Shown here: positions 8,797 to 22,788 of the stretch, one piece after another
Numbering within the stretch: position 1 is the first letter of the stretch
How the letters are laid out: each line of letters starts with the position of its first letter
Assembly (NCBI GenBank): GCA_934633985.1
Contig: CAKTYU010000001.1
Location: forward strand, 93,500-157,499
Direction of reading: 5' to 3'
DNA length: 64,000 nucleotides
Origin: an uncultured Clostridia bacterium
GTDB taxonomy: Bacteria > Bacillota > Clostridia > Christensenellales > CAG-138
Translations under genes and position numbers: made by a program
Notes under the pieces: model-generated
The model's input: only the letters and a program-made list of their open reading frames with translations
Databases searched by the model: none
What the model was told of the DNA's origin: nothing

Positions 8797-9130
8797 CTTC
8801 TGCTCAGACAGAATAGGGGGCGCCGCCTAAAAAGCGGAGCCCCTTCAGTCTGTCGAAAAACCGTGGGGTTGTTAAGGGGCCGCAGCCCCTTAAGTTAATT
8901 CCGGCTTTGACGACATGTGCGTCAAAACGGATGAAAACCGGAGGTTTTCGCACTTTACGGGTTTTGCCGCCCGGGAACGAATGTGAGAGGCAAAACCCGC
9001 AAAAACTCGAAAAAGTGGTCTTTAGCCACTTTTTCGACACTCTGTAGGGCCCCGCCCGATAAAAGCGGGACCCCTTTAATATCGACATTTTTGCAGGGCA
9101 GCGTCACGCGCTGCCGAGCTTAAGGCGAAT
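8797..9130. repeat. Cluster of at least five consecutive imperfect hairpins (REP/MITE-like intergenic repeat array)
   Basis: Hairpins lie at about 8808..8862, 8870..8893, 8906..8928, 8960..9000, 9008..9036 (CGAAAAAGTGG/CCACTTTTTCG) and 9045..9075. A 37-nt block at 9001..9037 is identical to 14076..14112. The track ORF 8804..9088(-) is probably spurious. Confidence 0.7.
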
Positions 9131-9131
9131 A

Positions 9132-9335
9132 TTACATATCCGCGCAGGGATTATTGGCCGGGCCCATGTTCAGGGTAAGGCCGGCGGTTATGCTGCTTTG
9201 CAGAATGTTCAGGCATTCTCCGAAGCGCTGGAAGTGAACTATCTCGCGCTCCCTGAGGAAGCGCAGGGGATTGATTATGGCAGGGTCGTCCGTCAGCACC
9301 ATCAGGTGCTCGTAAGTTGCTCTCGCCTTCTGCTC
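9132..9335 (-). CDS. cotJC: cotJC 3' segment (codons 136-202 plus stop of a split manganese-catalase-family spore coat gene)
   Basis: This minus-strand frame lacks a start codon and is not in the track. It translates as EQKARATYEHLMVLTDDPAIINPLRFLREREIVHFQRFGECLNILQSSITAGLTLNMGPANNPCADM*. This is collinear with the remembered B. subtilis CotJC C-terminus (AAEEKARATYQWL...LRFLREREIVHSQRF). Confidence 0.85.
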   Translation of the reverse strand, partial: EQKARATYEHLMVLTDDPAIINPLRFLREREIVHFQRFGECLNILQSSITAGLTLNMGPANNPCADM

Positions 9336-9363
9336 TGCCGCTGTATCGAAAGGGCAACATTTT
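9336..9363. repeat. Element-terminal inverted repeat, left arm (attP half-site within attL)
   Basis: Minus-strand sequence AAAATGTTGCCCTTTCGATACAGCGGCA. It matches 24 of 28 positions with the inverted arm at 21834..21861. Confidence 0.85.
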
Positions 9364-9369
9364 TCCGCG

Positions 9370-10935
9370 CTAAAAGCTCCAGTGTATTTCCAAAGGCACC
9401 TCCCAGCTTCCGGGCGGGCGCTTTCCTATATATATGCGCTCTATCAGGGCTTCTACTGCGGCGCGGTCCAGCGATTCCAGCAGCAGCGGCAGCTTTTCCG
9501 GCTCCGGCGGGCGATACGCCCGCGCAAGCTCCGCCGCGCCGCTTGCAGCGGCTTGCGTTAGCCGCTGCTTTTCGGCGGAGATGCGCTTTAGGGCGTCTGA
9601 AAAGTCGGCCTCGCTCACGCGGCCCTCCGCCCTGTCCAAATAAAGACGCGCCAAGGCCGCGGAGCATGCCTCCACGCGCCCCTGAAGCCTTGATACGCGC
9701 TGGGATAAGTCCCGCGCCAGCTGCGGGCTGCCGCGCCGGAGATATAGCTCCTTCAGCATATTTTCATCGAGGCTTTCTGCGGCGATGCGGTTCGCCTCGC
9801 ACAGCACGGCCCTCTCCAGCCGCTTTACGGATATGAAGCCGCCGGGGCAGGCGTCCTTTGAAATATAGCGGCGGCTGCACCGAAGGTAGCCCTCGCCATG
9901 GCTCTTTGCGGAGCGCATGGGGCCCTTGCAGCAGGCGCAGTATACCCTGCCGGAAAAAGCGCCCGCCCTGTTGCCGGAAAAGGGGCGGGCCCTTTCGGAT
10001 ATGAGCTGCTGCACGCTCTGCCACAGCCTTTCATCTATTATCGCCTCGTGGGTGTTTTCCACCCTGAACCACAGCTCCGGCGGCCTTGGCACGCTGCGCT
10101 TGGTCTTGTAGGATGCGCTGCCGTACCTGCCCTGAACCATATTGCCGATGTAGACCTCATTTTTGAGCATACGGGATACCGTGCCGTACTGCCACAGCCC
10201 GCCGCCGGGGGAAGGTATGCCGCGGGCATTGAGCTCCCGGGCTATGGAGGTCTTTCCCCGGCCGAGCGCGAACAGCGAGAATATCTCCCGCACTGCGGCG
10301 GCCTTTTCATCATCTACTATGAGGCGTCCCTTACGGTGTGGGTCCTTGGCGTAGCCGTATGGCGCGGAGGAGCCTATGTGCAGCCCCAGCCTCCTGCGGC
10401 TGTCGAGCACGCTCTTTATGCTCTCAGACATATCCTCGAGGTACCACTCGTTCACGAGGCCGTTTATCTGGCGCGCCTTTTTGTTGCCGGGGTCGTCGGT
10501 GTCGCAGTTGTCCGCCACGCTCACGAAGCGTATGCCCCAAAGCGGGAAAAGGCCGTGTATGTACTTTTCCACCAGCTCTAACTCACGGGTAAAGCGGGAT
10601 TGGGTCTTACACAGTACTACGTCGAAGTTTTTTGCTTCCGCGTCCCGCAAGAGCCTGTTGAATTCCGGCCTGTTCCTGTCCGCACCGGCATAGTCGTCGT
10701 CGCTGTATATATCGTATATCTCCCAGCCCTGCGCGGCGGCGTACTGGGCGAGCAGCAGCTTCTGGTTCTGTATGCTTCCGCTGTCCGCGCCCTCCGCCCT
10801 GCCCTTGTCCTCCTCGGAGAGCCGGCAGTATATGGCGGCCCTCATGCGCCCCGCCTTTTGCACAGCATTTGCAGCCACCTTTCCGCCAGCAGCCTTTTGT
10901 CGGGAAGCCCGCCGCTTTTGAATACGCTTTTGCAT
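9370..10935 (-). CDS. Large serine recombinase (resolvase/invertase N-domain, recombinase domain and zinc-ribbon)
   Basis: Contains AAIYCRLSEEDK...SIQNQK...YSDDDYAGADRNRPEFNRLL...VVLCKTQSRFTRE (catalytic Ser region), then the recombinase domain, Cys pairs CACC...C and a C-terminal coiled coil. The stop is 6 nt from the terminal inverted repeat. The start is uncertain: the track's GTG at 10962 abuts the SD, so ATG 10935 or ATG 10845 is more likely. Confidence 0.9.
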   Translation of the reverse strand: MQKRIQKRRASRQKAAGGKVAANAVQKAGRMRAAIYCRLSEEDKGRAEGADSGSIQNQKLLLAQYAAAQGWEIYDIYSDDDYAGADRNRPEFNRLLRDAEAKNFDVVLCKTQSRFTRELELVEKYIHGLFPLWGIRFVSVADNCDTDDPGNKKARQINGLVNEWYLEDMSESIKSVLDSRRRLGLHIGSSAPYGYAKDPHRKGRLIVDDEKAAAVREIFSLFALGRGKTSIARELNARGIPSPGGGLWQYGTVSRMLKNEVYIGNMVQGRYGSASYKTKRSVPRPPELWFRVENTHEAIIDERLWQSVQQLISERARPFSGNRAGAFSGRVYCACCKGPMRSAKSHGEGYLRCSRRYISKDACPGGFISVKRLERAVLCEANRIAAESLDENMLKELYLRRGSPQLARDLSQRVSRLQGRVEACSAALARLYLDRAEGRVSEADFSDALKRISAEKQRLTQAAASGAAELARAYRPPEPEKLPLLLESLDRAAVEALIERIYIGKRPPGSWEVPLEIHWSF

Positions 10936-11014
10936 ATAGGTACTTTTTCCAAAAAACAACACCTCCCGTATATAGATATTACGGCGCGGCGGCGGTTATA
11001 ATACAGCCTGTGAT

Positions 11015-11029
11015 ATCTATATAATAGAT
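11015..11029. promoter_or_regulatory. LTTR-type dyad ATC-N9-GAT (T-N11-A box) in the recombinase/lysR divergent region
   Basis: ATCTATATAATAGAT is read directly from the sequence, about 100 nt upstream of the lysR start. A second 9-bp inverted repeat is TATAGATAT (10971..10979) / ATATCTATA (11014..11022). Confidence 0.35.
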
Positions 11030-11129
11030 AACGAATATTGCATTATATAAAATTTGAATAGATGAGCGATGGGCAAAGAATTTGCGTTGTTGTATACTAT
11101 ATGAGATTAAGGATTAAGGTGGGTTTGAT

Positions 11130-12092
11130 ATGGATATCAGCCTTAGGCAGCTTGAGGCATTTATAAAGGTAGCGGAGCACAGGAGCTTCTCCAAGGCGGG
11201 AGACGAGCTGTTTTTGAGCCAGTCTACCATAAGCAGCCATGTGGCGCAGCTTGAGCAGTCCCTTCAGGTGACGCTGATAAAGCGCCGTGAAAAGAAAAAC
11301 ATAGAGCTTACGGGGGAGGGGCAGAGGGCGTATCGCGCAGCGCAGGTGATAATCAACCAGGCGGAAATGCTGCAAAATATGTTCCGCAAGGAGGAGGCCG
11401 ACCAGCCCCTCATATCCATCGCCGCCTCCACGGTGCCATCGAGCTACATACTGCCGGGCATAATGACGGGTTTTTCCGACATCAGGCCGGAATGCAGGTT
11501 TTCCGTGCTGGATGGGGACAGCTCCTTCGCCCTTGAGCGGCTGCAAAACGGCGAGGCCGTGTTCGCGTTTGTGGGCACCAGCAGCCGCAAGACCGTATTC
11601 AGCTACCATACCGTCTGCCGGGACAGGATGGTGCTCATCACCCAGAACAACAAGGAGTTTGCCGAAAAAAAGGAAATGGGCGTGCTGGGCAAGGAGCTGT
11701 TGGAGTGGCCTATGATAATGCGGGAGAGCGGCAGCGGTACCCGCCGGGAGACGGACAACTACCTAAAGAGCATAGGAATGTCCTCGGCGGAGCTCAACGT
11801 GGCGGGCTATATGAACAACATCGAGGGGATAAAGAGCATGGTCGCCGCCGGAAAGGGCACCACCATACTTTCGGAGCGGGCGGCGGCAGACGCCATACGC
11901 GACGGGCGGGTGCTTTGCTTCGACCTCGAGGAGGACGGGCCGTATAGGGATATATACATCGCCTACCTCAAGAACCGCAGCTTCACACAGACGGAGCAGG
12001 CGTTTTTGAATTATGTTAGGAACCGCGGCGGCGAAAAGCCTAAGCAGAGCAAGAATAACAAAAACAACAAGAAAGCACTTAAGGAGGCATGA
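11130..12092 (+). CDS. LysR family transcriptional regulator
   Basis: N-terminal HTH LRQLEAFIKVAEHRSFSKAGDELFLSQSTISSHVAQLE, followed by a LysR substrate-binding domain and a K/N-rich tail. Confidence 0.9.
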   Translation: MDISLRQLEAFIKVAEHRSFSKAGDELFLSQSTISSHVAQLEQSLQVTLIKRREKKNIELTGEGQRAYRAAQVIINQAEMLQNMFRKEEADQPLISIAASTVPSSYILPGIMTGFSDIRPECRFSVLDGDSSFALERLQNGEAVFAFVGTSSRKTVFSYHTVCRDRMVLITQNNKEFAEKKEMGVLGKELLEWPMIMRESGSGTRRETDNYLKSIGMSSAELNVAGYMNNIEGIKSMVAAGKGTTILSERAAADAIRDGRVLCFDLEEDGPYRDIYIAYLKNRSFTQTEQAFLNYVRNRGGEKPKQSKNNKNNKKALKEA

Positions 12093-12098
12093 CGAAAA

Positions 12099-12707
12099 AT
12101 GGCAGACGTAAAGGTAAACGCGGTAGGCGAGCAGTGCCCTATACCGGTAGTAAAGGCTACCAAGGCGCTGGGCGAGTTTAAGGAAGCGGGCACCCTCGAG
12201 GTGCGGGTGGACAATGAAATAGCCATACAGAACCTTACCCGCCTTGCGGACAGCAAGGGACTGAAGAGCAGGAGCGAAAAGCTGGGGGATAATCTTTTCG
12301 CTATCACCATGGAGGTGAGCGGCCCGCTGACCATGGGCGGCGAGGATCTATCCTGCCATACTGACAGCAGGGGCGACTTTGTGGTGGCGATAGACGCGGA
12401 TACCATGGGCCGCGGCTCCGATGATTTGGGCCGCACGCTGATGAAGGGCTTTATCTTTGCCGTGTCCCAGCTCGAGGCCCTGCCCAAGACCATACTGTTC
12501 TACAACGGCGGCGCCAAGCTCACCGTCGAGGGCTCCGTATCGCTGGAGGATCTTAAGAGCATGGAGGCTCAGGGCGTGAACATACTAACCTGCGGCACCT
12601 GCCTTAACTTCTACGGCCTTACCGATAAGCTGGCGGTAGGCAGCGTCACCAACATGTATGTAATAGTAGAAACGCTGGCCAAGGCCGGAAAGGTCATCAA
12701 GCCGTGA
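12099..12707 (+). CDS. yedF: YedF-type sulfurtransferase-like selenium metabolism protein (TusA/SirA-like domain plus DsrE-like domain)
   Basis: The N-terminal VNAVGEQCPIPVVKATKAL carries the TusA CPxP motif. The C-terminal LFYNGGAKL...ILTCGTCLNFYG is DsrE/YedF-like. Confidence 0.75.
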   Translation: MADVKVNAVGEQCPIPVVKATKALGEFKEAGTLEVRVDNEIAIQNLTRLADSKGLKSRSEKLGDNLFAITMEVSGPLTMGGEDLSCHTDSRGDFVVAIDADTMGRGSDDLGRTLMKGFIFAVSQLEALPKTILFYNGGAKLTVEGSVSLEDLKSMEAQGVNILTCGTCLNFYGLTDKLAVGSVTNMYVIVETLAKAGKVIKP

Positions 12708-13837
12708 TCTACCTCGACAACGCCGCAACTACACTGCACAAGCCTCAGCAGGTGATAGACGCGGTGGTCCATGCCATGCAGTCCATGGGCAACTGCGCCC
12801 GGGGCACCCACGAGGAGGCCCTTGACGCGGCCCGCACCGTATACGACGCCCGCGTAAGGCTGGCGTCGCTTTTCGGCTGCCCCAGGGCGGATCACGTGGC
12901 CTTCACTGCGAACTCTACCGAGGCGCTGAACATCGCCATAAACGGGCTTATAGGCCCCGGCGACCATGTGATATCGACGGATCTCGAGCATAATTCCGTG
13001 CTGCGCCCGCTCTACCGTCTCCAGACGGAGCAGGGGACAGAGCTCAGCTTTGTGCCGGCGGATAAGCTCGGCAGCGTGGATTATGAGGACTTTGAGAGGC
13101 TCATAAGGCCGAACACGAGGGCAATAGTATGCACCCACGCCTCAAATCTCACGGGAACCGTGCTGGATATAGAGAAAATTGCAAAAACAGCCCGCAGCCA
13201 CGGCGCGCTTATGATAGTTGACGCCTCCCAGACGGCGGGCTGCTGGCCCATCGACATGAAAAAAATGGGCATAGACGTGCTGTGCTTTACCGGGCACAAA
13301 GGGCTTATGGGCCCGCAGGGCACCGGCGGCCTGTGCGTCAGGGAGGGCATAGAGATACGCCCCTTTAAGGTGGGCGGCTCCGGCGTGCAGTCATACAGCA
13401 GGACCCAGCCGGCGGAGTACCCTACCAGGCTGGAGGCGGGCACGCTGAACGGTCACGGCATAGCGGGGCTATGCGCTGCGGCGAGTTTTATATCCGAGAC
13501 CGGCGTGGAGGCCATACACGCAAAGGAGCGTTCGCTCATGCTGCGCTTTTATGAGGGCGTGAGGGCCGTCGAGGGCGTAACGGTATACGGCGACTTTACA
13601 AGGGACAAGACCGCCATAGTCGCGCTCAACATTCGGGATTACGAATCCGGCGAGGTGTCGTATGAGCTTTCGGAGAGCTACGGCATAGCTACCCGCCCTG
13701 GGGCCCACTGCGCCCCCCGTATGCACAAGGCCCTCGGCACGGATGAAACAGGCGCGGTGCGCTTCAGCTTTTCCTTCTACAATACGGAGGAGGAGACAGA
13801 CGAGGCGATAAGGGCTGTGGCGGAGCTTGCGCGATGA
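12704..13837 (+). CDS. Class V aminotransferase-fold cysteine desulfurase / selenocysteine lyase-like protein
   Basis: IYLDNAATT at the N-terminus, FTGHKGLMGPQGTGGL (PLP Lys) and RPGAHCAP (active-site Cys loop). A GTG start overlaps the yedF stop. Confidence 0.8.
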   Translation: MIYLDNAATTLHKPQQVIDAVVHAMQSMGNCARGTHEEALDAARTVYDARVRLASLFGCPRADHVAFTANSTEALNIAINGLIGPGDHVISTDLEHNSVLRPLYRLQTEQGTELSFVPADKLGSVDYEDFERLIRPNTRAIVCTHASNLTGTVLDIEKIAKTARSHGALMIVDASQTAGCWPIDMKKMGIDVLCFTGHKGLMGPQGTGGLCVREGIEIRPFKVGGSGVQSYSRTQPAEYPTRLEAGTLNGHGIAGLCAAASFISETGVEAIHAKERSLMLRFYEGVRAVEGVTVYGDFTRDKTAIVALNIRDYESGEVSYELSESYGIATRPGAHCAPRMHKALGTDETGAVRFSFSFYNTEEETDEAIRAVAELAR

Positions 13838-14070
13838 GAGAAAAAAAGCTTTGGCTTATAATAACCTTCCGTACAACTACGGCCGCCATGGCCATGGAGA
13901 GCCTCTGCGCCGGAAAGGGGCTGCCGGGGCGGCTAATACCCGTGCCGAGGGAGATAACCGCCGGCTGCGGAATGAGCTGGCGGGCTCCGGTGGAGAGCAA
14001 GGCTGAGCTCATCGAGGCAGCGGAGCAGGCCGGCATAGCCACGGACGGCGTATATGAAATAGTTATCTGA
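13834..14070 (+). CDS. DUF3343 (putative Se/S carrier-like) small protein
   Basis: 78 aa. The pattern LIITFRTTTAAMAMESLC...GRLIPVPREITAGCGMSW matches the DUF3343 pattern. The start overlaps the upstream stop. Confidence 0.7.
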   Translation: MREKKLWLIITFRTTTAAMAMESLCAGKGLPGRLIPVPREITAGCGMSWRAPVESKAELIEAAEQAGIATDGVYEIVI

Positions 14071-14075
14071 CCCGA

Positions 14076-14138
14076 AAAAACTCGAAAAAGTGGTCTTTAG
14101 CCACTTTTTCGAAACTATAAGGCCCCCGTAAGGGGGCC
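14076..14138. repeat. Second copy of the double-hairpin repeat seen at 9001..9075; probable bidirectional terminator
   Basis: AAAAACTCGAAAAAGTGGTCTTTAGCCACTTTTTCGA is identical to 9001..9037. It is followed by the hairpin AGGCCCCC-gtaa-GGGGGCCT. Confidence 0.75.
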
Positions 14139-14317
14139 TGTTTTACAGCGCGGAGACCAACCTGCCAGGTCGATGTTATGTGTATAATCAATAACGGGAA
14201 GCTCTTATCTGAAACGTGATTTGCAAAACAAAGGTTGCTTTGATAACATCTCTGTAGTTCCTATAAGGATGAGGCTTACTCATCCAGCTTTTATAATATC
14301 ATCAGGAGGTACTAACA

Positions 14318-14803
14318 ATGCACATCAAGAAGGAAATCAGTCCCAAGAAGGTACAAAAGGCAGCGGAAGATAATTTCCGCAACGGTTTTTTCTGCTGTGA
14401 GGCGCTGGTGCAGGCCATACGCGATAACTTTGAGCTGGATGTACCCAAGGAGGTAATAGCAATGTCCTCCGGCATGGCGGTAGGCGTGGGCGGATCGGGC
14501 TGTATCTGCGGCGCGCTCAACGGCGGCGTAATGGCGCTCGGTATGTTTTTCGGGCGCACTGAGCCCAATGGCCCGAAGGATCCCGTCGTAGTAAAGTGCA
14601 AGGAGCTGACCCATGAGCTGCACGACTGGTTCAAGGCCAACAACGGCAAGAACGCTATATGCTGCCGCGTGCTTACCAAGGAATTTGACATGGGCAAGGG
14701 CGAGCACAAGGAGCAGTGCATACGCTTTACCGGATTGGTAGCCTGGAAAGTGGCGGATATAATCGTGCGCGAGCTGGGCCTCGTAAATCTGGATGAGCAA
14801 TAA
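14318..14803 (+). CDS. C_GCAxxG_C_C family (putative redox-active) protein
   Basis: 161 aa. Contains FFCCEALVQA and GSGCICGALNGGVMALG, plus further Cys residues (CCRV, QCIRF). Confidence 0.8.
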   Translation: MHIKKEISPKKVQKAAEDNFRNGFFCCEALVQAIRDNFELDVPKEVIAMSSGMAVGVGGSGCICGALNGGVMALGMFFGRTEPNGPKDPVVVKCKELTHELHDWFKANNGKNAICCRVLTKEFDMGKGEHKEQCIRFTGLVAWKVADIIVRELGLVNLDEQ

Positions 14804-14829
14804 AGCCCGCTGAAAAAGAGGAAAAATAC

Positions 14830-15768
14830 ATGAAGAACGCGATCAAGAAAGTACCTATACCGATTTGCGGTGTTATGCTGGGCATGGCGGCGCTCGGCAA
14901 CCTTTTGCAGAGCTATTCCGAGGGGATAAGGTCTGCCTGCGGCATAGTTGCGGCGATACTTATGGTGCTGTTCCTGCTGAAGGTCATTATGTTCCCCCAA
15001 ATGATAAGGGAGGACATGAATAATCCCATAATGGCCAGCGTATCCGGCACCTTCTCCATGGCGCTGATGCTTCTGGCGGGTTATGCAAAGCCCTTCATGG
15101 GAGCCGCCGCCATGTATATCTGGTTCATAGCTATTGCGCTGCATGCGGCGCTGATAGTCTACTTTACCGTTAAATTCATATTCAAGCTGGATATGAAAAA
15201 GGTATTCGCAAGCTATTATATAGTTTACGTCGGTATAGCCGTAGCCGCCGTTTCCGCGCCTGCATTTGATCAGCAGGACATAGGCGCGGCTACCTTCTGG
15301 TTCGGCTTTGTTACATTATTGGCGCTGCTCGTGCTCGTTACCGTAAGGTATGCAAAGTACAAGGAGATACCCAACCCCGCAAAGCCCCTGTTCTGCATTT
15401 ACGCAGCCCCCGCAAGCCTCTGCGTTGCGGGCTATGTGCAGTCTGTGACCCCCAAGTCCTACGGCTTCCTTATGGCGATGTACGCTCTGGCGGCAGCGCT
15501 GTATGTAATCGCGCTGGTCAAGGCCATAGGCTTCCTGAAGCTGCCGTTCTTCCCCAGCTATGCGTCCTTTACATTCCCCTTTGTAATAAGTGCAATAGCC
15601 TCCAAGCAGACCATGGCCTGCGCCGCAAAGATGGAGATGCCGCTGCCCTTCCTCAAGTACGTGGTGCTCATTGAAACGATAATAGCCACAGTGCTGGTCC
15701 TGTATACGCTGGTGCACTTCATGGCGTTCATATTTACCAAGCCAAAGGAAGCGGCAGCCGCTAAGTAA
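14830..15768 (+). CDS. TDT family (tellurite-resistance/dicarboxylate, TehA/SLAC1-like) transporter
   Basis: 312 aa with about 10 TM segments. The N-terminal VPIPICGVMLGMAALGNLL is typical of TehA-like proteins. Confidence 0.7.
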   Translation: MKNAIKKVPIPICGVMLGMAALGNLLQSYSEGIRSACGIVAAILMVLFLLKVIMFPQMIREDMNNPIMASVSGTFSMALMLLAGYAKPFMGAAAMYIWFIAIALHAALIVYFTVKFIFKLDMKKVFASYYIVYVGIAVAAVSAPAFDQQDIGAATFWFGFVTLLALLVLVTVRYAKYKEIPNPAKPLFCIYAAPASLCVAGYVQSVTPKSYGFLMAMYALAAALYVIALVKAIGFLKLPFFPSYASFTFPFVISAIASKQTMACAAKMEMPLPFLKYVVLIETIIATVLVLYTLVHFMAFIFTKPKEAAAAK

Positions 15769-15792
15769 AAACCAAATAATGACCTGAAAACC

Positions 15793-15828
15793 GGGCGTTA
15801 TCGGCATGGGCCATAACGCCCCTTTTGT
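15793..15828 (+). terminator. Intrinsic terminator / palindromic repeat unit
   Basis: GGGCGTTAT...ATAACGCCC followed by CTTTTGTT. It shares GGCGTTATCGGC and ATAACGCC with the hairpin at 17508..17538. Confidence 0.65.
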
Positions 15829-15959
15829 TATCGCTTGTTTGAATTTTATCAGCATCGGGCGTAATGGTATAATAATATTATCAGGAAGTACGCGCCGACA
15901 GTCGGACGCGCCATTTAGAAGATCAAAAGCAAAAAACAAATCATACGGAGGTACTCTAA

Positions 15960-17237
15960 ATGTCAGATTATGTACAGATGTGGAAAGACCTGGGCATGGA
16001 TTTGGAAAACCATGATATGCTGTGCCAGGTGCTGCCTACCGCGGTGGGAGACGTGTTCCTCACCCAGCAGAACAGGCCGAAGGCCATGGATTTCTGGGAT
16101 CTGGTAATATCCGAGGTACACGGCATCCGCCCCGCCGAGCTCATAGCCGCGCAAAAGGAAGGCCGCAAGGTATTCGGCACCTTCTGCGTGTACGTACCGG
16201 ACGAGGTGGTCATAGCCGCAAACGGCATAGTCACAGGCCTCTGCGGCGGAAGCCAGTTCTGGGTGCCCGGCGGCGAGACCGTGCTGCCCAAGAGCACCTG
16301 CCCTCTCGTAAAGGCCTCGGTGGGCGCACGCCTCGGGCGCACCTGCCCCTTCTTCCGCATAGCGGATATGTACGTAGGAGAGACCACCTGCGACGCCAAG
16401 AAGAAGGCGTATGAGATACTGGGCGAGGACGTTCCCATGTATGTAATGGACGTTCCCCAGATGAAGCGCGAGAAGGATATTATAAAATGGAAGGACGAGA
16501 TAGCGGAGTTTGCGAAGAAGGTGGAGGAGTTCACCGGAAACAGCATAACCCCCGAAAAGCTGGGCGAAGCGATCAAGATAATAAACAACAGGCGCAGGGC
16601 TATGGCGAGGGTATACGATGCGCGCAAGTCCGAGTGCCTGCCCATATCCGGGCGGGACGTGCTGCTCATGACGCAGATATCCTTCTTTGACGATCCGGTA
16701 CGCTGCGCGGAGATGTGCAACAGGCTGGCGGACGAGCTGGAGCAGCGCATAAAGGACGGCGTATCCGTGGTTCCTGCGGGCACCAAGCGCATACTCGTCA
16801 CCGGCACGCCCATGGCGGTACCCAACTGGAAGCTGCATAATATAATAGAGACCAGCGGCGCGGCAGTAGTATGCGAGGAGATGTGTACGGGCACACGTTA
16901 TTTCGAGAACCTTGTGGACGAGACCAAGACTACGCTGGACGATCAGTTCATGGCGCTGTCCGAGCGGTACATGAAGACCAACTGCGCCTGCTTTACCCCA
17001 AACCATGGCCGCATAGATGATCTGCTCAGGATGGTGAAGGAATACAAGGTGGACGGCGTTATTGATTGCAGCCTGAAGTTCTGCTGCCTGTATGATACCG
17101 AGAAGTACAGCGTGGCCCGCGCCCTCAAGGAAGCCGGAGTACCGGTGCTCGGCCTTGAAACGGACTATGCCGACACCGACGCCGAGCAGCTCCGCACCCG
17201 CATAGGCGCGTTCATAGAGATGCTCAACAACAGATAA
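15960..17237 (+). CDS. 2-hydroxyacyl-CoA dehydratase / benzoyl-CoA reductase BcrC-BadD-HgdB family protein (double-cubane-cluster-protein type)
   Basis: 425 aa. Conserved Cys-rich motifs include CVYVPDE, TGLCGG, TCPL, GETTCDAKKK, CEEMCTG, CACF and SLKFCC. Family assignment is by remembered pattern. Confidence 0.7.
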   Translation: MSDYVQMWKDLGMDLENHDMLCQVLPTAVGDVFLTQQNRPKAMDFWDLVISEVHGIRPAELIAAQKEGRKVFGTFCVYVPDEVVIAANGIVTGLCGGSQFWVPGGETVLPKSTCPLVKASVGARLGRTCPFFRIADMYVGETTCDAKKKAYEILGEDVPMYVMDVPQMKREKDIIKWKDEIAEFAKKVEEFTGNSITPEKLGEAIKIINNRRRAMARVYDARKSECLPISGRDVLLMTQISFFDDPVRCAEMCNRLADELEQRIKDGVSVVPAGTKRILVTGTPMAVPNWKLHNIIETSGAAVVCEEMCTGTRYFENLVDETKTTLDDQFMALSERYMKTNCACFTPNHGRIDDLLRMVKEYKVDGVIDCSLKFCCLYDTEKYSVARALKEAGVPVLGLETDYADTDAEQLRTRIGAFIEMLNNR

Positions 17238-17503
17238 TGTCCGACGTAAGGTACTATGTGCTCTTTGCAAACTATGAGCAGGGGCTTAAGCTGCACGGCA
17301 TATTGGACGGCGCCGGGGTGGAGAACAGGATAGCGCCGGCTCCCCGCTGCATACAGGGTGAGCTTTCCTGCGGTATGTCGCTGCTCATCGAAAAGGAGCA
17401 TATCGGAGAAGCAAGGTCGGTCATAGCGGCCTCCGGGGCGGAGTATCACGATATCGTCCCGCTGGAGGGGCAGATGAAGGCGCATAGGGATAAGTATTGT
17501 TAG
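17237..17503 (+). CDS. DUF3343 (putative Se/S carrier-like) small protein, second copy
   Basis: 88 aa, with YYVLFANYEQGLKLHGIL...RIAPAPRCIQGELSCGMSL. The start overlaps the upstream stop (ATAATG). Confidence 0.65.
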   Translation: MSDVRYYVLFANYEQGLKLHGILDGAGVENRIAPAPRCIQGELSCGMSLLIEKEHIGEARSVIAASGAEYHDIVPLEGQMKAHRDKYC

Positions 17504-17507
17504 GGAT

Positions 17508-17543
17508 ACGGCGTTATCGGCTTTGCCGATAACGCCGTATTTA
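17508..17543 (+). terminator. Palindromic hairpin (weak terminator) related to 15793..15821
   Basis: ACGGCGTTATCGGC-tttg-CCGATAACGCCGT forms a 13-14-bp stem. The downstream U-tract (ATTT) is weak. Confidence 0.5.
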
Positions 17544-17641
17544 AGATCGCTTCTGTGAATTTGGAATAATGGCGTATAAATGCTATCATGTGTTGGCCGG
17601 GCTTATCCCCGGCAGAGAATAACGAGAAACGGAGAAAAACA

Positions 17642-18620
17642 ATGAAAAAGCTGATTGCTGTTATCATGGTGCTTGCCATGGCGATGAGCCTTGCAGCCTG
17701 CGCCGCCCCCGCAGCCCAAGAGACGACTGCCCCCGCGGAAGAAACCGCCGCCCCCGCCGAGGAGGCTGCCGCCCCCGCAGAGGAGGCCCCCGCGTTCCAG
17801 TCCTCCATACTGTTTTGCGGCTCCACCTCCCTTTATCCCATAATTTCCTCGCTGGCTTCCTCCTTTACCGAGGGCTTTGTGACCTGGGATAAGGTGGACG
17901 CTTCCTTCCCCGACAGCAATATTTCCATTTATGTAGCGCCCGGCGGCTCCGGCGTTGGCGTGAGCGCCGCTGTTGACGGCACTGCTGACTTCGGCATGCT
18001 GGCCCGCGATATAAAGGATTCCGAGATAGAGGCCCTTGGCGCGGACTATCAGGATTACGTAGTGGCGAAGGATGCGCTGACCGTGTCCGTAAACGCCGAG
18101 AACCCCATCTGCAAGGTCATTGACGACATGGATACCGATACCATCCGCAAGATCTTCGCCGGCGAGATAACCACATGGGATCAGGTTGACGCCACCCTGC
18201 CCGCAGAGGCCATCAACGTATACATCCGCGACCTTTCCGGCGGCGCATACGAGGTATTCCAGAAGTCCGTAATGGGCGACAGCGAGGTCACTCCCGCCGC
18301 CACCCAGTCCGCCTCCATGACCGAGCTGGCCACCAATATCGCCGGGCGATCCCTGGGGCATAGGCTATGCAGGCTTTGGCGCCTACAACAAGGCTAACGC
18401 CGAGAAGCAGGTGCTCTTTGCCATGAAGGTAGACGGCGTTGAGGCAAACGAGGAGAACATCATCAGCGGCGAGTACAAGATACAGCGTCCCGTAATGTTC
18501 GTTACCGGCAAGCCCGTATCCCCCGCGGCCCAGGCCTTCATAGACTACATCTTCTCCCAGACCGGTTACGATGTAGTAGTGAAGAACGGCTATATCCCCG
18601 CCTTTACCCCTGCCGCGTAA
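17642..18620 (+). pseudogene. pstS: Phosphate ABC transporter substrate-binding lipoprotein PstS, disrupted by a +1 frameshift near 18344..18346
   Basis: Lipoprotein signal MKKLIAVIMVLAMAMSLAAC. The track splits it into 17588..18397 and 18411..18620. Removing one G from GCCGGGCGAT restores ...TNIAGDPWGIGYAGFGAYNKA... Confidence 0.75.
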
Positions 18621-18705
18621 TACTTCTTACATCGGTATAATACGTGCTGTCGGCGCAAAAATACGCCGGCAGCATTTGTGCGTTATAAACAGGAGCATAT
18701 TTCTC

Positions 18706-19578
18706 ATGCAAAAGAGACTTGAAAGGCTGTTCAGGCTGTTCATAGGGCTGCTGGCGCTGCTTGCCGTCGCATCCCTCGCATTCGTGATATTTTTTATAGT
18801 AAAGGAAGCCCTGCCGCTCTTTGGCGAAGTCAGCATAGGTGAGCTTTTGTTAGGAAAGAGATGGATGCCCATTGCCTATGTGGGGGAGCCCTCCTTCGGG
18901 ATATTCAACTTTATAATGGCTACGCTATACGTATCGCTGCTGGCTATGATAATAGCCTCGGCGGTGGGCATAGGCGCGGCGCTGTTCTTGTCCTGCGTCG
19001 CGCCATTGAAGGTGCGTGAGCTAATGTATCCGTTCATAGACCTGCTGGCGGGCATACCCTCCGTGATATACGGCTTTATAGGGCTCGTGGTGCTGGTAAG
19101 GCTCTTTATGAAGCTGGGAGTACATACCGGCTCCTGCGTGCTGGCGGCGGCCATACTGCTTAGCGTCATGCTGCTGCCGTACATCATCTCATCGTGCAGC
19201 GAGACCATACTCAAGGCCAAGGAAAGGTACCTGCCCGCGTCAAACGCCATGGGGATAGACAAATGGCACGCCATAGCCTCCGTCATACTTCCCGCGTCGT
19301 GGGGCAACATACTGCTTTCCATGATACTGGCGATAGGCCGGGCCATGGGCGAGACAATGGCGGTCATGATGGTCATAGGCAATGCGAACCTTTTCCCCAC
19401 TCTGCTGGGAAAGAGCGAGACCATCGCCGCGGTGATAGCGCTGGAGATGGGCACGGCGGAGGCGGGCAGCCTGCATTACCACGGCCTGTACGCCGCGGGC
19501 CTCGTGCTGATGGTGCTGCTTTTCATAATAAACGCAGTTATCGCCGCGCTTAGGTCAAGGCTCATAAGGGAGGCATAG
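18706..19578 (+). CDS. pstC: Phosphate ABC transporter permease PstC
   Basis: Polytopic, with the EAA-like loop IGRAMGETMAVMMV. The start is moved to ATG 18706, downstream of AGGAG. Confidence 0.85.
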   Translation: MQKRLERLFRLFIGLLALLAVASLAFVIFFIVKEALPLFGEVSIGELLLGKRWMPIAYVGEPSFGIFNFIMATLYVSLLAMIIASAVGIGAALFLSCVAPLKVRELMYPFIDLLAGIPSVIYGFIGLVVLVRLFMKLGVHTGSCVLAAAILLSVMLLPYIISSCSETILKAKERYLPASNAMGIDKWHAIASVILPASWGNILLSMILAIGRAMGETMAVMMVIGNANLFPTLLGKSETIAAVIALEMGTAEAGSLHYHGLYAAGLVLMVLLFIINAVIAALRSRLIREA

Positions 19579-19579
19579 C

Positions 19580-20413
19580 ATGAAGGGAAGGATAACAAAG
19601 CTCTGGGCATACATAAGCATAGCGCTGGTGGCGGCCTCCATACTCTTCCTGTTCGCATACGTCTTTATACGGGGCGCGGGAACCATAACATGGGAGTTCC
19701 TTTCCCAGCCGCCCAAGGGCGCCATACTGGGCATGGAGGGCGGCGTATGGCCGGCCATAGCGGGCAGCCTGTGCTTTACGGCCGTGGCCATAGTGCTGGG
19801 CGGCATACCAGCCATAGCCGCCGCGCTTTATATAGTATTCTATTGTGAGAACAGGCGAATCGAGAAGGCGTTCCACACTGTAATACGCTGCATATCCGGC
19901 ATACCCTCCATAGTACTGGGCCTGTTTGCATACAGCTTCCTTGTGAGGGAGCTTCAGTGGGGCAGATGCATACTCTCCTCCGGCGTGGCGCTCGGCATAA
20001 TGATACTGCCATTTGTGGAGGTGAGGGCGGAGAAGGCGTTTCAGGAGCTTCCCAAGGCGGTAGTGCTTTCCTCGTATGCGCTGGGCTGTTCAAAAAGGTA
20101 TACGATAATGAAGATAGTGCTTCCCGCCTGCAAGGGCGAGCTCATATCCGGCCTTATACTGGGCGGGTGCTACGCCATGGGCGCAACGCCGCCGCTGATA
20201 TTTACGGGGGGCGTAGCATACGCGAGCGCGCCCACCAGCCTTATGAAGCCCGCCATGGCGCTGCCGCTGCACCTGTACCTGCTGCTGGCCCAAGGCGCTA
20301 CCTCCTTTGACATGGCATACGGCACGGCATTCGTGATGATGACGATAATACTCATAAGCAACCTACTGGCAACTATATACGCAGCAAGGAGTCACGCAAG
20401 ATGGAAAGCATAA
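19580..20413 (+). CDS. pstA: Phosphate ABC transporter permease PstA
   Basis: 277 aa and polytopic. LGCSKRYTIMKIVLPA is typical of PstA. Confidence 0.85.
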   Translation: MKGRITKLWAYISIALVAASILFLFAYVFIRGAGTITWEFLSQPPKGAILGMEGGVWPAIAGSLCFTAVAIVLGGIPAIAAALYIVFYCENRRIEKAFHTVIRCISGIPSIVLGLFAYSFLVRELQWGRCILSSGVALGIMILPFVEVRAEKAFQELPKAVVLSSYALGCSKRYTIMKIVLPACKGELISGLILGGCYAMGATPPLIFTGGVAYASAPTSLMKPAMALPLHLYLLLAQGATSFDMAYGTAFVMMTIILISNLLATIYAARSHARWKA

Positions 20414-21150
20414 TGCGAATTGAAGATCTGACGGCGGCATACGGCAAAAAGACGGTGCTGCACGACATAAGCCTCGACATACCGAAGCGGGGCATAACCG
20501 CCATAATAGGCCCTTCGGGCTGCGGCAAGACCACGCTTCTGCACTGTATGAACGGTATGCTTGGGGAAAACAGCGAGGCCGCGGTATCCGGCCATATCTA
20601 CCTTGGGGACAGGGATACGGCTAACATCCCCCCCGATGAGCTGCGCCGCAGGGTGGGGCTGGTGTTCCAGACCCCGTCGCCCTTCCCGTTTTCCGTTTAC
20701 AAGAACATGACCTATGGGTTAAAATACTACGGTAAGACCGGTAAGAAGGAGCTGGAGAGCGCGGTAATAGAAAAGCTCCGTACAGTCGGCCTGTACGACG
20801 AGGTAAAGGACGACCTGAACAAGAGCGCAATGAAGCTCTCCGGCGGGCAGCAGCAGAGGCTCTGCATCGCCCGCGCGCTCACGGTGGAGCCGGAGGTGCT
20901 TATGATGGACGAGCCCTGCTCGGCGCTCGACGTGAAGGCCACGGCGGTGATAGAGGATATGCTGTCGGCTATGAAGAAGGATTACTCCATAGTGATAGTC
21001 ACCCACAACATCGCCCAGGCAAAGCGCATAGCGGACGAGGTAGCGGTGATATTCGACGGCCGGCTGATAGAAAAAGGGCCGGCGGCGGAGGTGTTCGAGC
21101 TGCCGAAGCAGCAGCTCACCCGCGAGTTCCTTGCGGGGATATACGGATAG
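20413..21150 (+). CDS. pstB: Phosphate ABC transporter ATP-binding protein PstB
   Basis: GPSGCGKTT, VFQTPSPFPFSVYKN, LSGGQQQRLCIARAL and VTHNIAQAKRIAD are present. Start is at ATG 20413 or 20401. Confidence 0.9.
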   Translation: MRIEDLTAAYGKKTVLHDISLDIPKRGITAIIGPSGCGKTTLLHCMNGMLGENSEAAVSGHIYLGDRDTANIPPDELRRRVGLVFQTPSPFPFSVYKNMTYGLKYYGKTGKKELESAVIEKLRTVGLYDEVKDDLNKSAMKLSGGQQQRLCIARALTVEPEVLMMDEPCSALDVKATAVIEDMLSAMKKDYSIVIVTHNIAQAKRIADEVAVIFDGRLIEKGPAAEVFELPKQQLTREFLAGIYG

Positions 21151-21159
21151 GGGGAAGGC

Positions 21160-21627
21160 ATGATAAGGATAGACATACCCGGGCGGGATATGATCGAGAT
21201 AGAGCATGTGGTGCTGGATTATAACGGCACGATAGCCCTGGATGGAAAGCTCATAGAGGGCGCGGCGCGGCGCATAAGGGAGCTTTGCGGCAGCGCCCGC
21301 GTCTACATACTTACGGCGGACACCTACGGCACGGTTATGGCCCAATGCGGCGGCCTGGGCGCGGAGGTAAAGACCTTTCCGCGGGCCAACGCCTCGGAGT
21401 GCAAGGAGGAGATAGTGCGCGCCCTCGGCGGAAAGGCTGCCTGTATTGGCAACGGCTTCAACGACATAAGGATGTTCGACGCGGCGGAGCTTTCCATCGC
21501 CGTAATGGACGGCGAGGGAGTGTGCGCCGCACTCATAGCGCACAGCGACGTATTGGCGCGCAGCGCGGAGGAGGCCCTCGACCTGCTGCTTAAGGGGGAC
21601 AGGCTCCGCGCCACCCTCAGGACATGA
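21160..21627 (+). CDS. HAD-superfamily protein (soluble P-type-ATPase-like domain)
   Basis: 155 aa. Contains VLDYNGT (a DxxGT-like motif), ILTADTYG and IGNGFNDIRMF (the HAD GDGxND equivalent). Confidence 0.65.
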   Translation: MIRIDIPGRDMIEIEHVVLDYNGTIALDGKLIEGAARRIRELCGSARVYILTADTYGTVMAQCGGLGAEVKTFPRANASECKEEIVRALGGKAACIGNGFNDIRMFDAAELSIAVMDGEGVCAALIAHSDVLARSAEEALDLLLKGDRLRATLRT

Positions 21628-21799
21628 CGCGGCATACAAGTAAACTGATTGATAAAATAGATAACAGCCGACATGATATCTTAGCTTTGTATTTGTAATA
21701 AGCCCGAATAGGTGCTATTATAAATACAGATAAAGAACCGGCTGAAATAAAAACCTCTTATTCTTATTTCTTACTTGACCAATACAGCGGAGAAAGAAA

Positions 21800-21830
21800 C
21801 ACTGCCATGAAGGGCAGTGCTTCTTTTTTT
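21800..21830 (+). terminator. Intrinsic terminator closing the plus-strand pst/HAD operon just inside the element end
   Basis: CACTGCC-atgaag-GGCAGTG forms a 7-bp stem, followed by CTTCTTTTTTT. Confidence 0.6.
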
Positions 21831-21833
21831 CGT

Positions 21834-21861
21834 AAAATGTTGCCCTTTCAGCGCAGCGGCA
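21834..21861. repeat. Element-terminal inverted repeat, right arm (attP half-site within attR)
   Basis: Plus-strand sequence AAAATGTTGCCCTTTCAGCGCAGCGGCA. It is the inverted partner of 9336..9363, with 24 of 28 positions matching. Confidence 0.85.
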
Positions 21862-21863
21862 TC

Positions 21864-22268
21864 TGCTGCCATGTCCTCGGTAATATCGGTTATCGGGTCG
21901 CCCGTACACTGGAGAGAGGCGGCGGTGAAGGGTACGCCGTTGGGGTCGGCGGGGTATACGCCCTTGGAGTGCATGGTATAGTAGCCCATAAGCCCCGCGG
22001 CCTCGATCTCCTCCAGCGTCGCATCGCGCAGGCATTGGTGTATCATGGTGCCTATCATCTCCCAGTGGGCGAGCTCCTCGGTGCCTATGTCGTTGCAGGT
22101 GGCCTTTACCCGGTTATCCGGCATGGAGAAGCGCTGGGTAAGGTAGCGGCAGCCTGCGGCAAGCTCGCTGTCAGGCCCGCCGTATTGGGCCATGAGCGCC
22201 TTTGCCATGCGGGGGTTGGGCGTTGTTATGTTTACGGGGTATTCCAGCTTTTTCTGATAGATCCACAT
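21864..22268 (-). CDS. cotJC: cotJC 5' segment (codons 1-135 of the split manganese-catalase-family spore coat gene)
   Basis: Translates as MWIYQKKLEYPVNITTPNPRMAKALMAQYGGPDSELAAGCRYLTQRF...IGTEELAHWEMIGTM...GVPFTAASLQCTGDPITDITEDMAA, collinear with remembered B. subtilis CotJC. In the un-rearranged DNA the ORF reads on through 30 element-encoded codons to a stop at 21771. Confidence 0.9.
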
Positions 22269-22283
22269 TTAGTCTTTTCCTCC

Positions 22284-22532
22284 TTAATCCCAGGGCCATT
22301 CGCTGCAAACGTAGCAGCCCGCGGCGGTGGCGGAGTGGCCGAAGTTCATAAGCGGGCCGTACTGCTCCTCGTACGCCGCGATAAGCTCCTTGAGCCGGGC
22401 GGAGTAGTACAGGTAATCGCTGCGGGCGGCGTTGTCGCCGGGGTGGGTGTCGAGATACAGGTTAAGCTCTACTGAAACGAACTGATATTCGCTTATGGTT
22501 TTAAGCAGGTCACACTTGGTCATGTCGTTCAT
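22284..22532 (-). CDS. cotJB: Spore coat protein CotJB
   Basis: 82 aa. EYQFVSVELNLYLDTHPGDNAA...YEEQYGPL is the CotJB family pattern. Confidence 0.85.
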   Translation of the reverse strand: MNDMTKCDLLKTISEYQFVSVELNLYLDTHPGDNAARSDYLYYSARLKELIAAYEEQYGPLMNFGHSATAAGCYVCSEWPWD

Positions 22533-22542
22533 GGCAGCCTCC

Positions 22543-22788
22543 TTACATTACGAGCTCCGGAAAGAGCGTGCCGCTGATCAGGGCCTCGCAGGGGCAGTAG
22601 CCCTGAAGGTAGTCCTGATCCGGAAAGTATGCGGCAGCCAGGGGGACGCTGTTCGCGGCCGATTCGGGGTAGCCGCCGCTGTCCCAGCCGGAGCAGGGCC
22701 GGGTGCTTGCGGCGCCGGCGCCCACAAGTATTCCGCTGTCTGAGCAGACAGGCTCTGCACAGCGGCAGGTATTGTTTTTCAGATTCAC
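22543..22788 (-). CDS. cotJA: Spore coat-associated protein CotJA
   Basis: 81 aa with a GTG start after GGAGG. The C-terminal LAAAYFPDQDY...EALISGTLFPEL is the CotJA family pattern. Confidence 0.75.
   Translation of the reverse strand: MNLKNNTCRCAEPVCSDSGILVGAGAASTRPCSGWDSGGYPESAANSVPLAAAYFPDQDYLQGYCPCEALISGTLFPELVM

Follow-up and report, generated by a model that had tools for sequence, protein, structure and literature searches.

In this work we analyzed a 64,000-nt stretch of DNA from an uncultured Clostridia bacterium (referred to below as the window; positions are those of this stretch). The minus strand carries the cotJA-cotJB-cotJC operon, in which cotJC is split by an island of 12,528 bp (9336-21863, one dinucleotide copy included). 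The island has a large serine recombinase (LSR) gene at one edge, a small conserved open reading frame (ORF) directly upstream of it, and a series of cargo genes on the opposite strand. The gene order cotJA-cotJB-cotJC is identical in intact loci. The features of the locus are listed below in the order of the plus strand.

9151..9335, minus strand: cotJC C-terminal fragment (Glu136 to stop), with no start codon of its own; from the rebuilt ORF and the homologue alignment
9334..9338, no strand assigned: left copy of the attL/attR overlap TCTGC; proposed crossover TC at 9334-9335 (GA in cotJC sense)
9336..9363, no strand assigned: attP half-site next to the recombinase (P arm), 28 bp; 6 nt separate it from the recombinase stop codon
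9370..10845, minus strand: LSR of 491 aa when counted from the conserved ATG, in a frame that is open up to 10962
10842..10952, minus strand: conserved 36-aa ORF, candidate accessory or directionality factor; TTG start, GGAGG 9 nt upstream
11130..21627, plus strand: cargo genes, from Pfam and NCBIfam scans
21800..21831, plus strand: terminator-like hairpin (CACTGCC...GGCAGTG, then a T-run) that lies where the cargo genes end, just inside the distal arm
21834..21861, no strand assigned: distal attP half-site (P' arm), 28 bp, inverted-repeat pair with 9336-9363
21862..21866, no strand assigned: right copy of the 5-bp overlap TCTGC; crossover dinucleotide TC at 21862-21863 (proposed)
21862..22268, minus strand: cotJC N-terminal fragment (Met1 to Ala135 plus GA of Glu136), Pfam Mn_catalase
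22284-22532, minus strand: cotJB, from the Pfam scan (PF12652 and PF11007 for cotJB/cotJA)
22543-22788, minus strand: cotJA, from the Pfam scan; upstream of cotJC in the same operon

In the integrated state the frame of the cotJC N-terminal fragment continues into the element and stops at 21771. In-silico deletion of 9336-21863, i.e., the element together with one repeat copy, gave rise to a 202-aa CotJC that aligned gap-free with 13 intact homologues (69-85% identity over the alignment). The junction in the rebuilt protein falls in the invariant motif EDMAAEQKA, and the predicted crossover dinucleotide GA forms bases 1-2 of the invariant Glu136 codon. A first-pass annotation of this DNA had reported that the 5-nt direct repeat restores the cotJC frame. 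The ORF is indeed rebuilt, but the frame fixes the junction modulo 3 only (joins shifted by -3 or +3 are also open); the exact join is settled by the alignment with intact CotJC homologues, which is gap-free across EDMAAEQKA.

The recombinase has the Pfam domains PF00239 (Resolvase, E = 1.6e-22), PF07508 (Recombinase, E = 5e-29), and PF13408 (Zn_ribbon_recom, E = 8e-9), with the catalytic Ser within the motif MRAAIYCRLSEED. Its motif AAIYCRLSEED aligns with TALYERLSRDD of TnpX, and the catalytic domain of TnpX (Tn4451) was the best PDB match, next to TP901-1 integrase and SprA (E about 1e-11 over the N-terminal 310 residues). Among named recombinases TndX is the nearest, with 32% identity over 88% of the protein. 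In the NCBIfam scan no family reached the cut-off and the matches to CcrB and XisF were sub-threshold; therefore no equivalog assignment was made. Pfam and NCBIfam scans detected this LSR as the one recombinase of the element. The same scans of the element detected no phage structural, replication, or lysis genes, no conjugation or mobilisation genes, and no transposase gene, and the Rfam scan of the element gave no matches.

A genome scan with the recombinase as query returned 80 loci, many of which adjoin cotJC fragments. Locus L001, from a sister species, shares the island and its insertion codon with the window; its recombinase is 78% identical to that of the window, and nucleotide identity is 85-90% throughout. 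Comparison with L001 also bears on the recombinase start, which the first-pass annotation had placed at 10935: the upstream extension that matches window 10845-10962 (minus strand) is interrupted in L001 (10001-10120) by an in-frame stop, and for this reason the conserved ATG at 10845 is probably the start. Computed from this ATG, the dN/dS of the recombinase against L001 is 0.20 over its full length and 0.076 for the catalytic domain.

Next, we examined the two arms. They read TGCCGCTGTATCGAAAGGGCAACATTTT (left, 9336-9363) and AAAATGTTGCCCTTTCAGCGCAGCGGCA (right, 21834-21861) and are complementary at 24/28 positions, and the 4 mismatches form a single block (AGCG vs GATA). Their positions and those of the TCTGC core, read directly from the sequence, were correct as first annotated. 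Joining the right end to the left rebuilds a 58-bp attP of 28 + TC + 28 on the plus strand. When symmetry was scored with a 2-nt gap, the best centre, with 24/28, was TC on the plus strand (GA in gene sense) and the runner-up reached 16/28, in agreement with the near-perfect palindrome of 28 + GA + 28 described in the first pass. The arm pair ranks first among 98 inverted pairs in an inverted-repeat search of 9000-22300. Two given 28-mers would match at ≥24/28 positions with a probability of ∼2e-11 (binomial, p = 0.25), and chance is not a credible explanation for the arm symmetry. With ≤2 mismatches allowed, the outer 16-mer of the arm occurs at 2 sites only in the 64-kb window (0.04 expected), namely in the two arms.

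The direct identity between the two junctions is exactly 5 bp (TCTGC), with none beyond. The identity of attL and attR in this overlap would permit a serine recombinase to exchange strands at any position within it, i.e., at GC, CA, or AG of the shared GCAGA as well as at GA. We chose GA as the predicted crossover on the basis of the symmetry and of the comparative register. The dinucleotide GA is non-palindromic and lies inside the attL/attR overlap; the symmetry centre thus falls in the 5-nt direct repeat, as had been stated, although at one edge of it and not in the middle. The argument of the first pass that symmetry and frame repair are two independent signals for the same nucleotide is weaker than claimed, and comparative data take its place. 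The L001 arms are complementary at 26/28 positions and differ from those of the window by three substitutions, identical in both arms, which lie 12 kb apart. In a second relative, L006 (recombinase 52% identical), the element is inverted at the same codon and both ends are present; its rebuilt attP is symmetric about the same dinucleotide as that of the window. Three independently rebuilt attP sites (window, L001, and L006) are thus symmetric about one and the same dinucleotide. The attL and attR sites share 5 bp in the window, compared with 8 bp in both L001 and L006, and GA lies at the end of this overlap in all three.

The two orientations of insertion are informative about the crossover. 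Loci of the window type (n = 7) read arm-GA-cotJC (C side) and loci of the inverted type (n = 9) read arm-TC-antisense cotJC (N side). In both orientation classes GTTG is found 19 nt from the dinucleotide, wherever the ATGTTG motif is recognisable. Any other exchange dinucleotide would give class-specific arm-to-centre spacings, and GA alone gives equal spacing in both classes; therefore the orientation flip favours GA, and it is the strongest in-silico support for this assignment. TndX, a relative of the window recombinase, uses GA: its targets always have a central GA (PMC4430133). The GA crossover predicted for the window recombinase is shared with TndX (Tn5397), at an identity of only 32%. 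Against the 24/28 vs 16/28 symmetry, the same centre in L001 and L006, and the equal spacings, exchange at GC, CA, or AG is quite improbable. We concluded that the crossover is predicted at GA, with support from related genomes, and the insertions at codon 136 provide a natural illustration of how the central dinucleotide sets the polarity of integration. The predicted junctions, in gene sense, are as follows.

Predicted attB junction: …GACATGGCAGCA-GA-GCAGAAGGCG…
Predicted attP junction: …GATACAGCGGCA-GA-TGCCGCTGCGCTG…

Together with attL and attR, these junctions make up a full set of attachment sites with a predicted crossover for an uncharacterised serine recombinase of gut Clostridia.

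Inverted repeats next to a 5-bp direct repeat superficially make up a Tn3/IS signature, and a DDE-type transposon with 28-bp terminal inverted repeats and a 5-bp target-site duplication would also see its target restored by the removal of one repeat copy. However, the sole recombinase of the element is of the serine type and a transposase gene is absent. At the left end, 3 nt belong to both the inverted and the direct repeat, and at the right end the two share none, so that the repeats do not flank symmetric termini. The "duplication" would differ in length, with 5 bp in the window but 8 bp in both L001 and L006, and repeated insertions at the same codon, in either orientation, are seen in several families of Clostridia. 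The DDE transposon was rejected on these four grounds (transposase, asymmetric arm/repeat overlap, variable repeat length, and codon-specific insertion), and we regard it as extremely improbable.

The inner organization of the half-sites was compared with that of a studied integrase. The motif ATGTTG occupies half-site positions 25-20 and is found in most relatives, in a degenerate form in L009, L012, L013, and L125; in both attP arms of the window the longer motif ATGTTGYYC occupies positions 25-17. In the C-side attB half, A.GTTG[CT]TC is located at positions 20-12 in the window, L001, and L006, and the match fraction of the outer motif is 0.55 at offset +5 vs a background of ∼0.25. The LI-integrase model places the zinc-ribbon motif at attP half-site positions 16-24 and 5 bp nearer the centre in attB (PMC3783163). 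The window island resembles the Listeria phage A118/LI integrase model in its half-sites of ∼25-28 bp with an outer motif at ∼16-24 in attP. It agrees with the model only in part as regards the 5-bp inward shift in attB, since the shifted motif is found in one attB half only. The N-side attB half has no shifted outer motif, although over its inner 12 nt it is similar to the inner arm (8-9/12 in the window and L001). The rebuilt attB as a whole has no overall symmetry (at most 12/28).

An att geometry of this kind is the standard one for LSRs. The domains of the protein, the geometry of attP, the rebuilt attB, and the att sites of the relatives all agree with an LSR, as the first-pass annotation had read it. 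We consider it quite likely that the arms are the P and P' half-sites of an LSR attachment site and that the locus is a 12,528-bp non-phage island inserted in cotJC at the Glu136 codon, which we infer to be capable of excision.

A second clade of elements, with recombinases 37-39% identical to that of the window, targets the His100-Gly codons of cotJC (L017, L019, and L023; also L022 and L024). In this clade the overlap is 5 bp (CCATG), the central dinucleotide is CA (gene sense) at the overlap edge, and the arms are complementary at 19-22/28 positions. The gene cotJC is thus a recurrent target at two distinct codons, of which codon 136 has been hit in both orientations. Some of the cotJC-targeting elements have two tandem LSR genes after the small ORF (L007, L008, L010, L012, L016, and L128-L130). 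Upstream of the tandem LSRs in L128, L129, and L131 lie Tn916-like sigma70_r4/HTH_16 genes together with an actin-like ALP_N/MreB-like gene, a context that suggests conjugative or mobilisable relatives. One candidate for a free element was a 23.9-kb "circular plasmid" of Subdoligranulum variabile (OY725852.1; L125/L126), whose recombinase is 54% identical. It was rejected: the sequence carries an integrated junction, with the recombinase, the arm, GA, and the cotJC C fragment present and the other element end absent, and its designation as a plasmid probably stems from an artefact of the assembly.

To estimate selection on the split gene, we compared both halves of cotJC with those of L001. 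The N-terminal fragment has 39 synonymous and 7 nonsynonymous differences (dN/dS 0.034), and the C-terminal fragment has 15 synonymous and 0 nonsynonymous differences. Synonymous divergence of the two halves is 0.46-0.66, and the CotJC fragments of the two species are 95-100% identical to each other. Across the island genes the dS to L001 spans 0.24-1.03, and across the flanking genes 0.39-0.66. Since island and flank show similar dS, the insertion predates the split of the two species and has been inherited vertically. A gene that has been split for so long and is yet so strongly constrained must be reassembled, we reason.

Integrated copies were the only form found in the databases. The first-pass annotation had suggested a search of metagenomes for the attP on circular contigs. 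A scan of metagenome contigs with the proximal arm plus GA gave 42 matches, all of the L001 type and all integrated junctions (42/42), with no window-type match and no circle. The exact integrated N-terminal fragment of the window was found in nine assemblies. No excised attP junction and no empty attB of the window or L001 species was found in public assemblies, no intact CotJC >88% identical was found among 5.8 billion proteins, and the arm pattern had 0 matches in viral contigs (IMG/VR).

These data have to be weighed against an ordinary integrative island that uses cotJC as a landing pad, in which case cotJC would be inactivated and excision would serve transfer only, with no role in sporulation. 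The cargo is metabolic (selenium and transport) with its own LysR regulator, and relatives of the recombinase module are found in mobile-looking elements with Tn916-like regulatory genes or ParAB genes, both of which would fit such an island. In addition, no sporulation-type promoter was established in a search of the window, L001, and the small-ORF loci, which yielded only weak CATA-type motifs. However, both halves of cotJC are intact and under strong purifying selection despite a synonymous divergence of 0.46-0.66; island and flanks have diverged to a similar extent, with an insertion older than the species split; and neither an empty site in the 42 + 9 assemblies nor an intact allele in the protein database was found. 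The att arms have also changed at matching positions in both copies. A dead gene would be expected to behave otherwise, and we think that an ordinary island is unlikely. Purifying selection on both halves, co-divergence with the host, and the lack of an empty site argue that the island behaves like a skin/gin-type intervening element of a sporulation gene. One consequence is for annotation: the cotJC pieces should not carry a pseudogene label.

In B. subtilis skin, a 5-bp repeat lies within inverted repeats of roughly 21 bp. The window island is similar to skin/SpoIVCA in sigK (B. subtilis and C. difficile) and to SPbeta SprA/SprB in spsM in that a mother-cell gene is split, the recombinase gene is located at the element edge, and, in those systems, precise excision rebuilds the gene. 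Unlike skin and SPbeta, which are prophage-derived, it has no phage genes, and its recombinase is only distantly related to theirs. The closer parallel is gin in gerE of Bacillus cereus ATCC10987 (GirC/GirX), also a non-phage element in a late sporulation gene with an LSR and an overlap of more than 2 bp. In gin, the imperfect inverted repeat is 27 bp long and the overlap 9 bp, and cleavage was predicted at the dinucleotide at the 3' end of the overlap (PMC5595907). The two elements differ in target (cotJC vs gerE), host (gut Clostridia vs Bacilli), dinucleotide (GA vs AA), cargo, and the number of recombinases (one here vs three in gin); excision of gin and its directionality factor were shown experimentally, whereas for the present island excision is predicted and the factor is a candidate. 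TndX and TnpX transposons are conjugative or mobilisable, whereas the window island has no transfer genes.

Interruption of cotJC by an element is not new. Elements that interrupt cotJC were reported earlier by Abe et al. (2013), as cited in bioRxiv 10.1101/2021.11.22.469490, and one was described in Laceyella sacchari (bioRxiv 10.1101/2022.02.25.481979). As far as the available parts of these sources go, the earlier elements share target gene and concept with the window island, and no att geometry, crossover dinucleotide, clostridial example, second target codon, or selenium cargo is given there. What is new here is a clostridial, non-phage instance with selenium cargo, together with two target codons in cotJC, the orientation-flip evidence at codon 136, and a family of small partner genes. 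Non-phage intervening elements would thereby be extended from Bacilli (gin) to gut Clostridia.

In the mechanism that we propose, attL and attR would be bound by the LSR encoded at the island edge (9370-10845, minus strand), which would cut both sites with a 2-nt stagger at GA (TC at 9334-9335 and at 21862-21863) and, after rotation, rejoin the ends. This would leave the cotJA-cotJB-cotJC operon intact and release a circle with the 58-bp attP (28 + GA + 28). By analogy with skin, SPbeta, and gin, excision would most likely occur in the sporulating mother cell, and the spore genome would keep the island. If excision does occur in the mother cell, the selenium cluster would be lost from the mother-cell chromosome. 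Which way the reaction runs may depend on the conserved small ORF that directly precedes the recombinase gene.

This 36-aa ORF (10842-10952, minus strand) is translationally coupled to the recombinase in the window, its TGA stop overlapping the recombinase ATG, and it is open in L001 and L002. It belongs to a family of 36-58 aa with the core ..C.[SN]VFKNG....T.EE[FY]T..WI.[LM]IN..E.., whose members besides the window are found directly upstream of a cotJC-targeting recombinase in L001-L016, L018, L020, L021, L025-L027, and L030. An HMM built on 12 peptides was used to scan 25,165 stop-to-stop segments from 81 loci. Significant matches were obtained in 22 loci, nine of them outside the training set, all on the recombinase strand and ending 3-152 nt upstream of the recombinase start. 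There were no HMM matches in loci with recombinases ≤35% identical, nor in the tndX locus. A 46-aa ORF upstream of tndX looked similar by eye and was discarded as the family HMM did not detect it; the family is thus found upstream of the window recombinase and undetected upstream of tndX. In the databases the family comprises 89 clusters, mostly of 44-48 aa, with no Pfam domain or informative name. The small ORF directly precedes an LSR in eight independent contexts, including Tn916-like elements with two tandem recombinases abutting cotJC.

No known or characterised directionality factor was found in the element. GirX, the experimentally proven directionality factor of gin, has 42 aa and was formerly unannotated (PMC5595907), and for this reason the small ORF is a reasonable candidate for such a factor. 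Alternatively, the LSR may be bidirectional by itself, by analogy with TndX, which according to a title in the reference list of PMC4430133 (its reference 31) is sufficient alone for both directions. If the small ORF does act in this way, it would define a new family of directionality factors of clostridial LSRs, because the module is found in two clades, at two cotJC codons, and in mobile-looking elements. The candidate factors, with their recombinases and att sites, would then form triplets useful as genome-engineering parts. A broader reading, in which a vertically fixed, non-viral selenium island serves as a developmental switch of cotJC and the undescribed 36-58-aa family upstream of the recombinase sets its directionality, is offered tentatively; we hold it to be possible and on balance doubtful.

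Upstream of the small ORF, CATA boxes were seen in ∼14/23 loci, many of which are related; the window has no such box. At 11090-11118 (minus strand), ∼140 nt upstream of the small ORF and overlapping the LysR start codon, the sequence AC-N16-CATAtagTA is found, which we take to be a match to a sigmaK-type promoter. This match is doubtful because the spacer in L001 has a 1-nt deletion.

The cargo genes encode a LysR regulator, YedF, an SclA-like cysteine desulfurase/selenocysteine lyase, and two Se/S-carrier proteins, as well as a C_GCAxxG protein, a TehA/SLAC1-like channel, and a double-cubane-cluster reductase, together with a PstSCAB-like ABC transporter and a HAD hydrolase. The segment 11130-17503 resembles a selenium-utilisation cluster (YedF, the SclA-like lyase, the two Se/S carriers, the double-cubane reductase, and the LysR regulator). 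The terminator-like hairpin at 21800-21831 is also present in L001, as read from the sequence. Two near-identical palindromes (15794-15820 and 17510-17536; GGCGTTATCGGC...GCCGATAACGCC) lie upstream of the double-cubane reductase and PstS-like genes, respectively. They are partly kept in L001 and have no Rfam match, and they may be operators or attenuators of the LysR regulon of the island. The PstS-like gene (17588-18620, plus strand) is in two frames in the window, with a frameshift near 18335-18345, and is one intact ORF in L001; the frameshift reflects either a pseudogene or a sequencing error. The L001 island is otherwise collinear with that of the window and lacks a 1.7-kb segment (14071-15792) that encodes the C_GCAxxG_C_C protein and the TehA/SLAC1-like channel.
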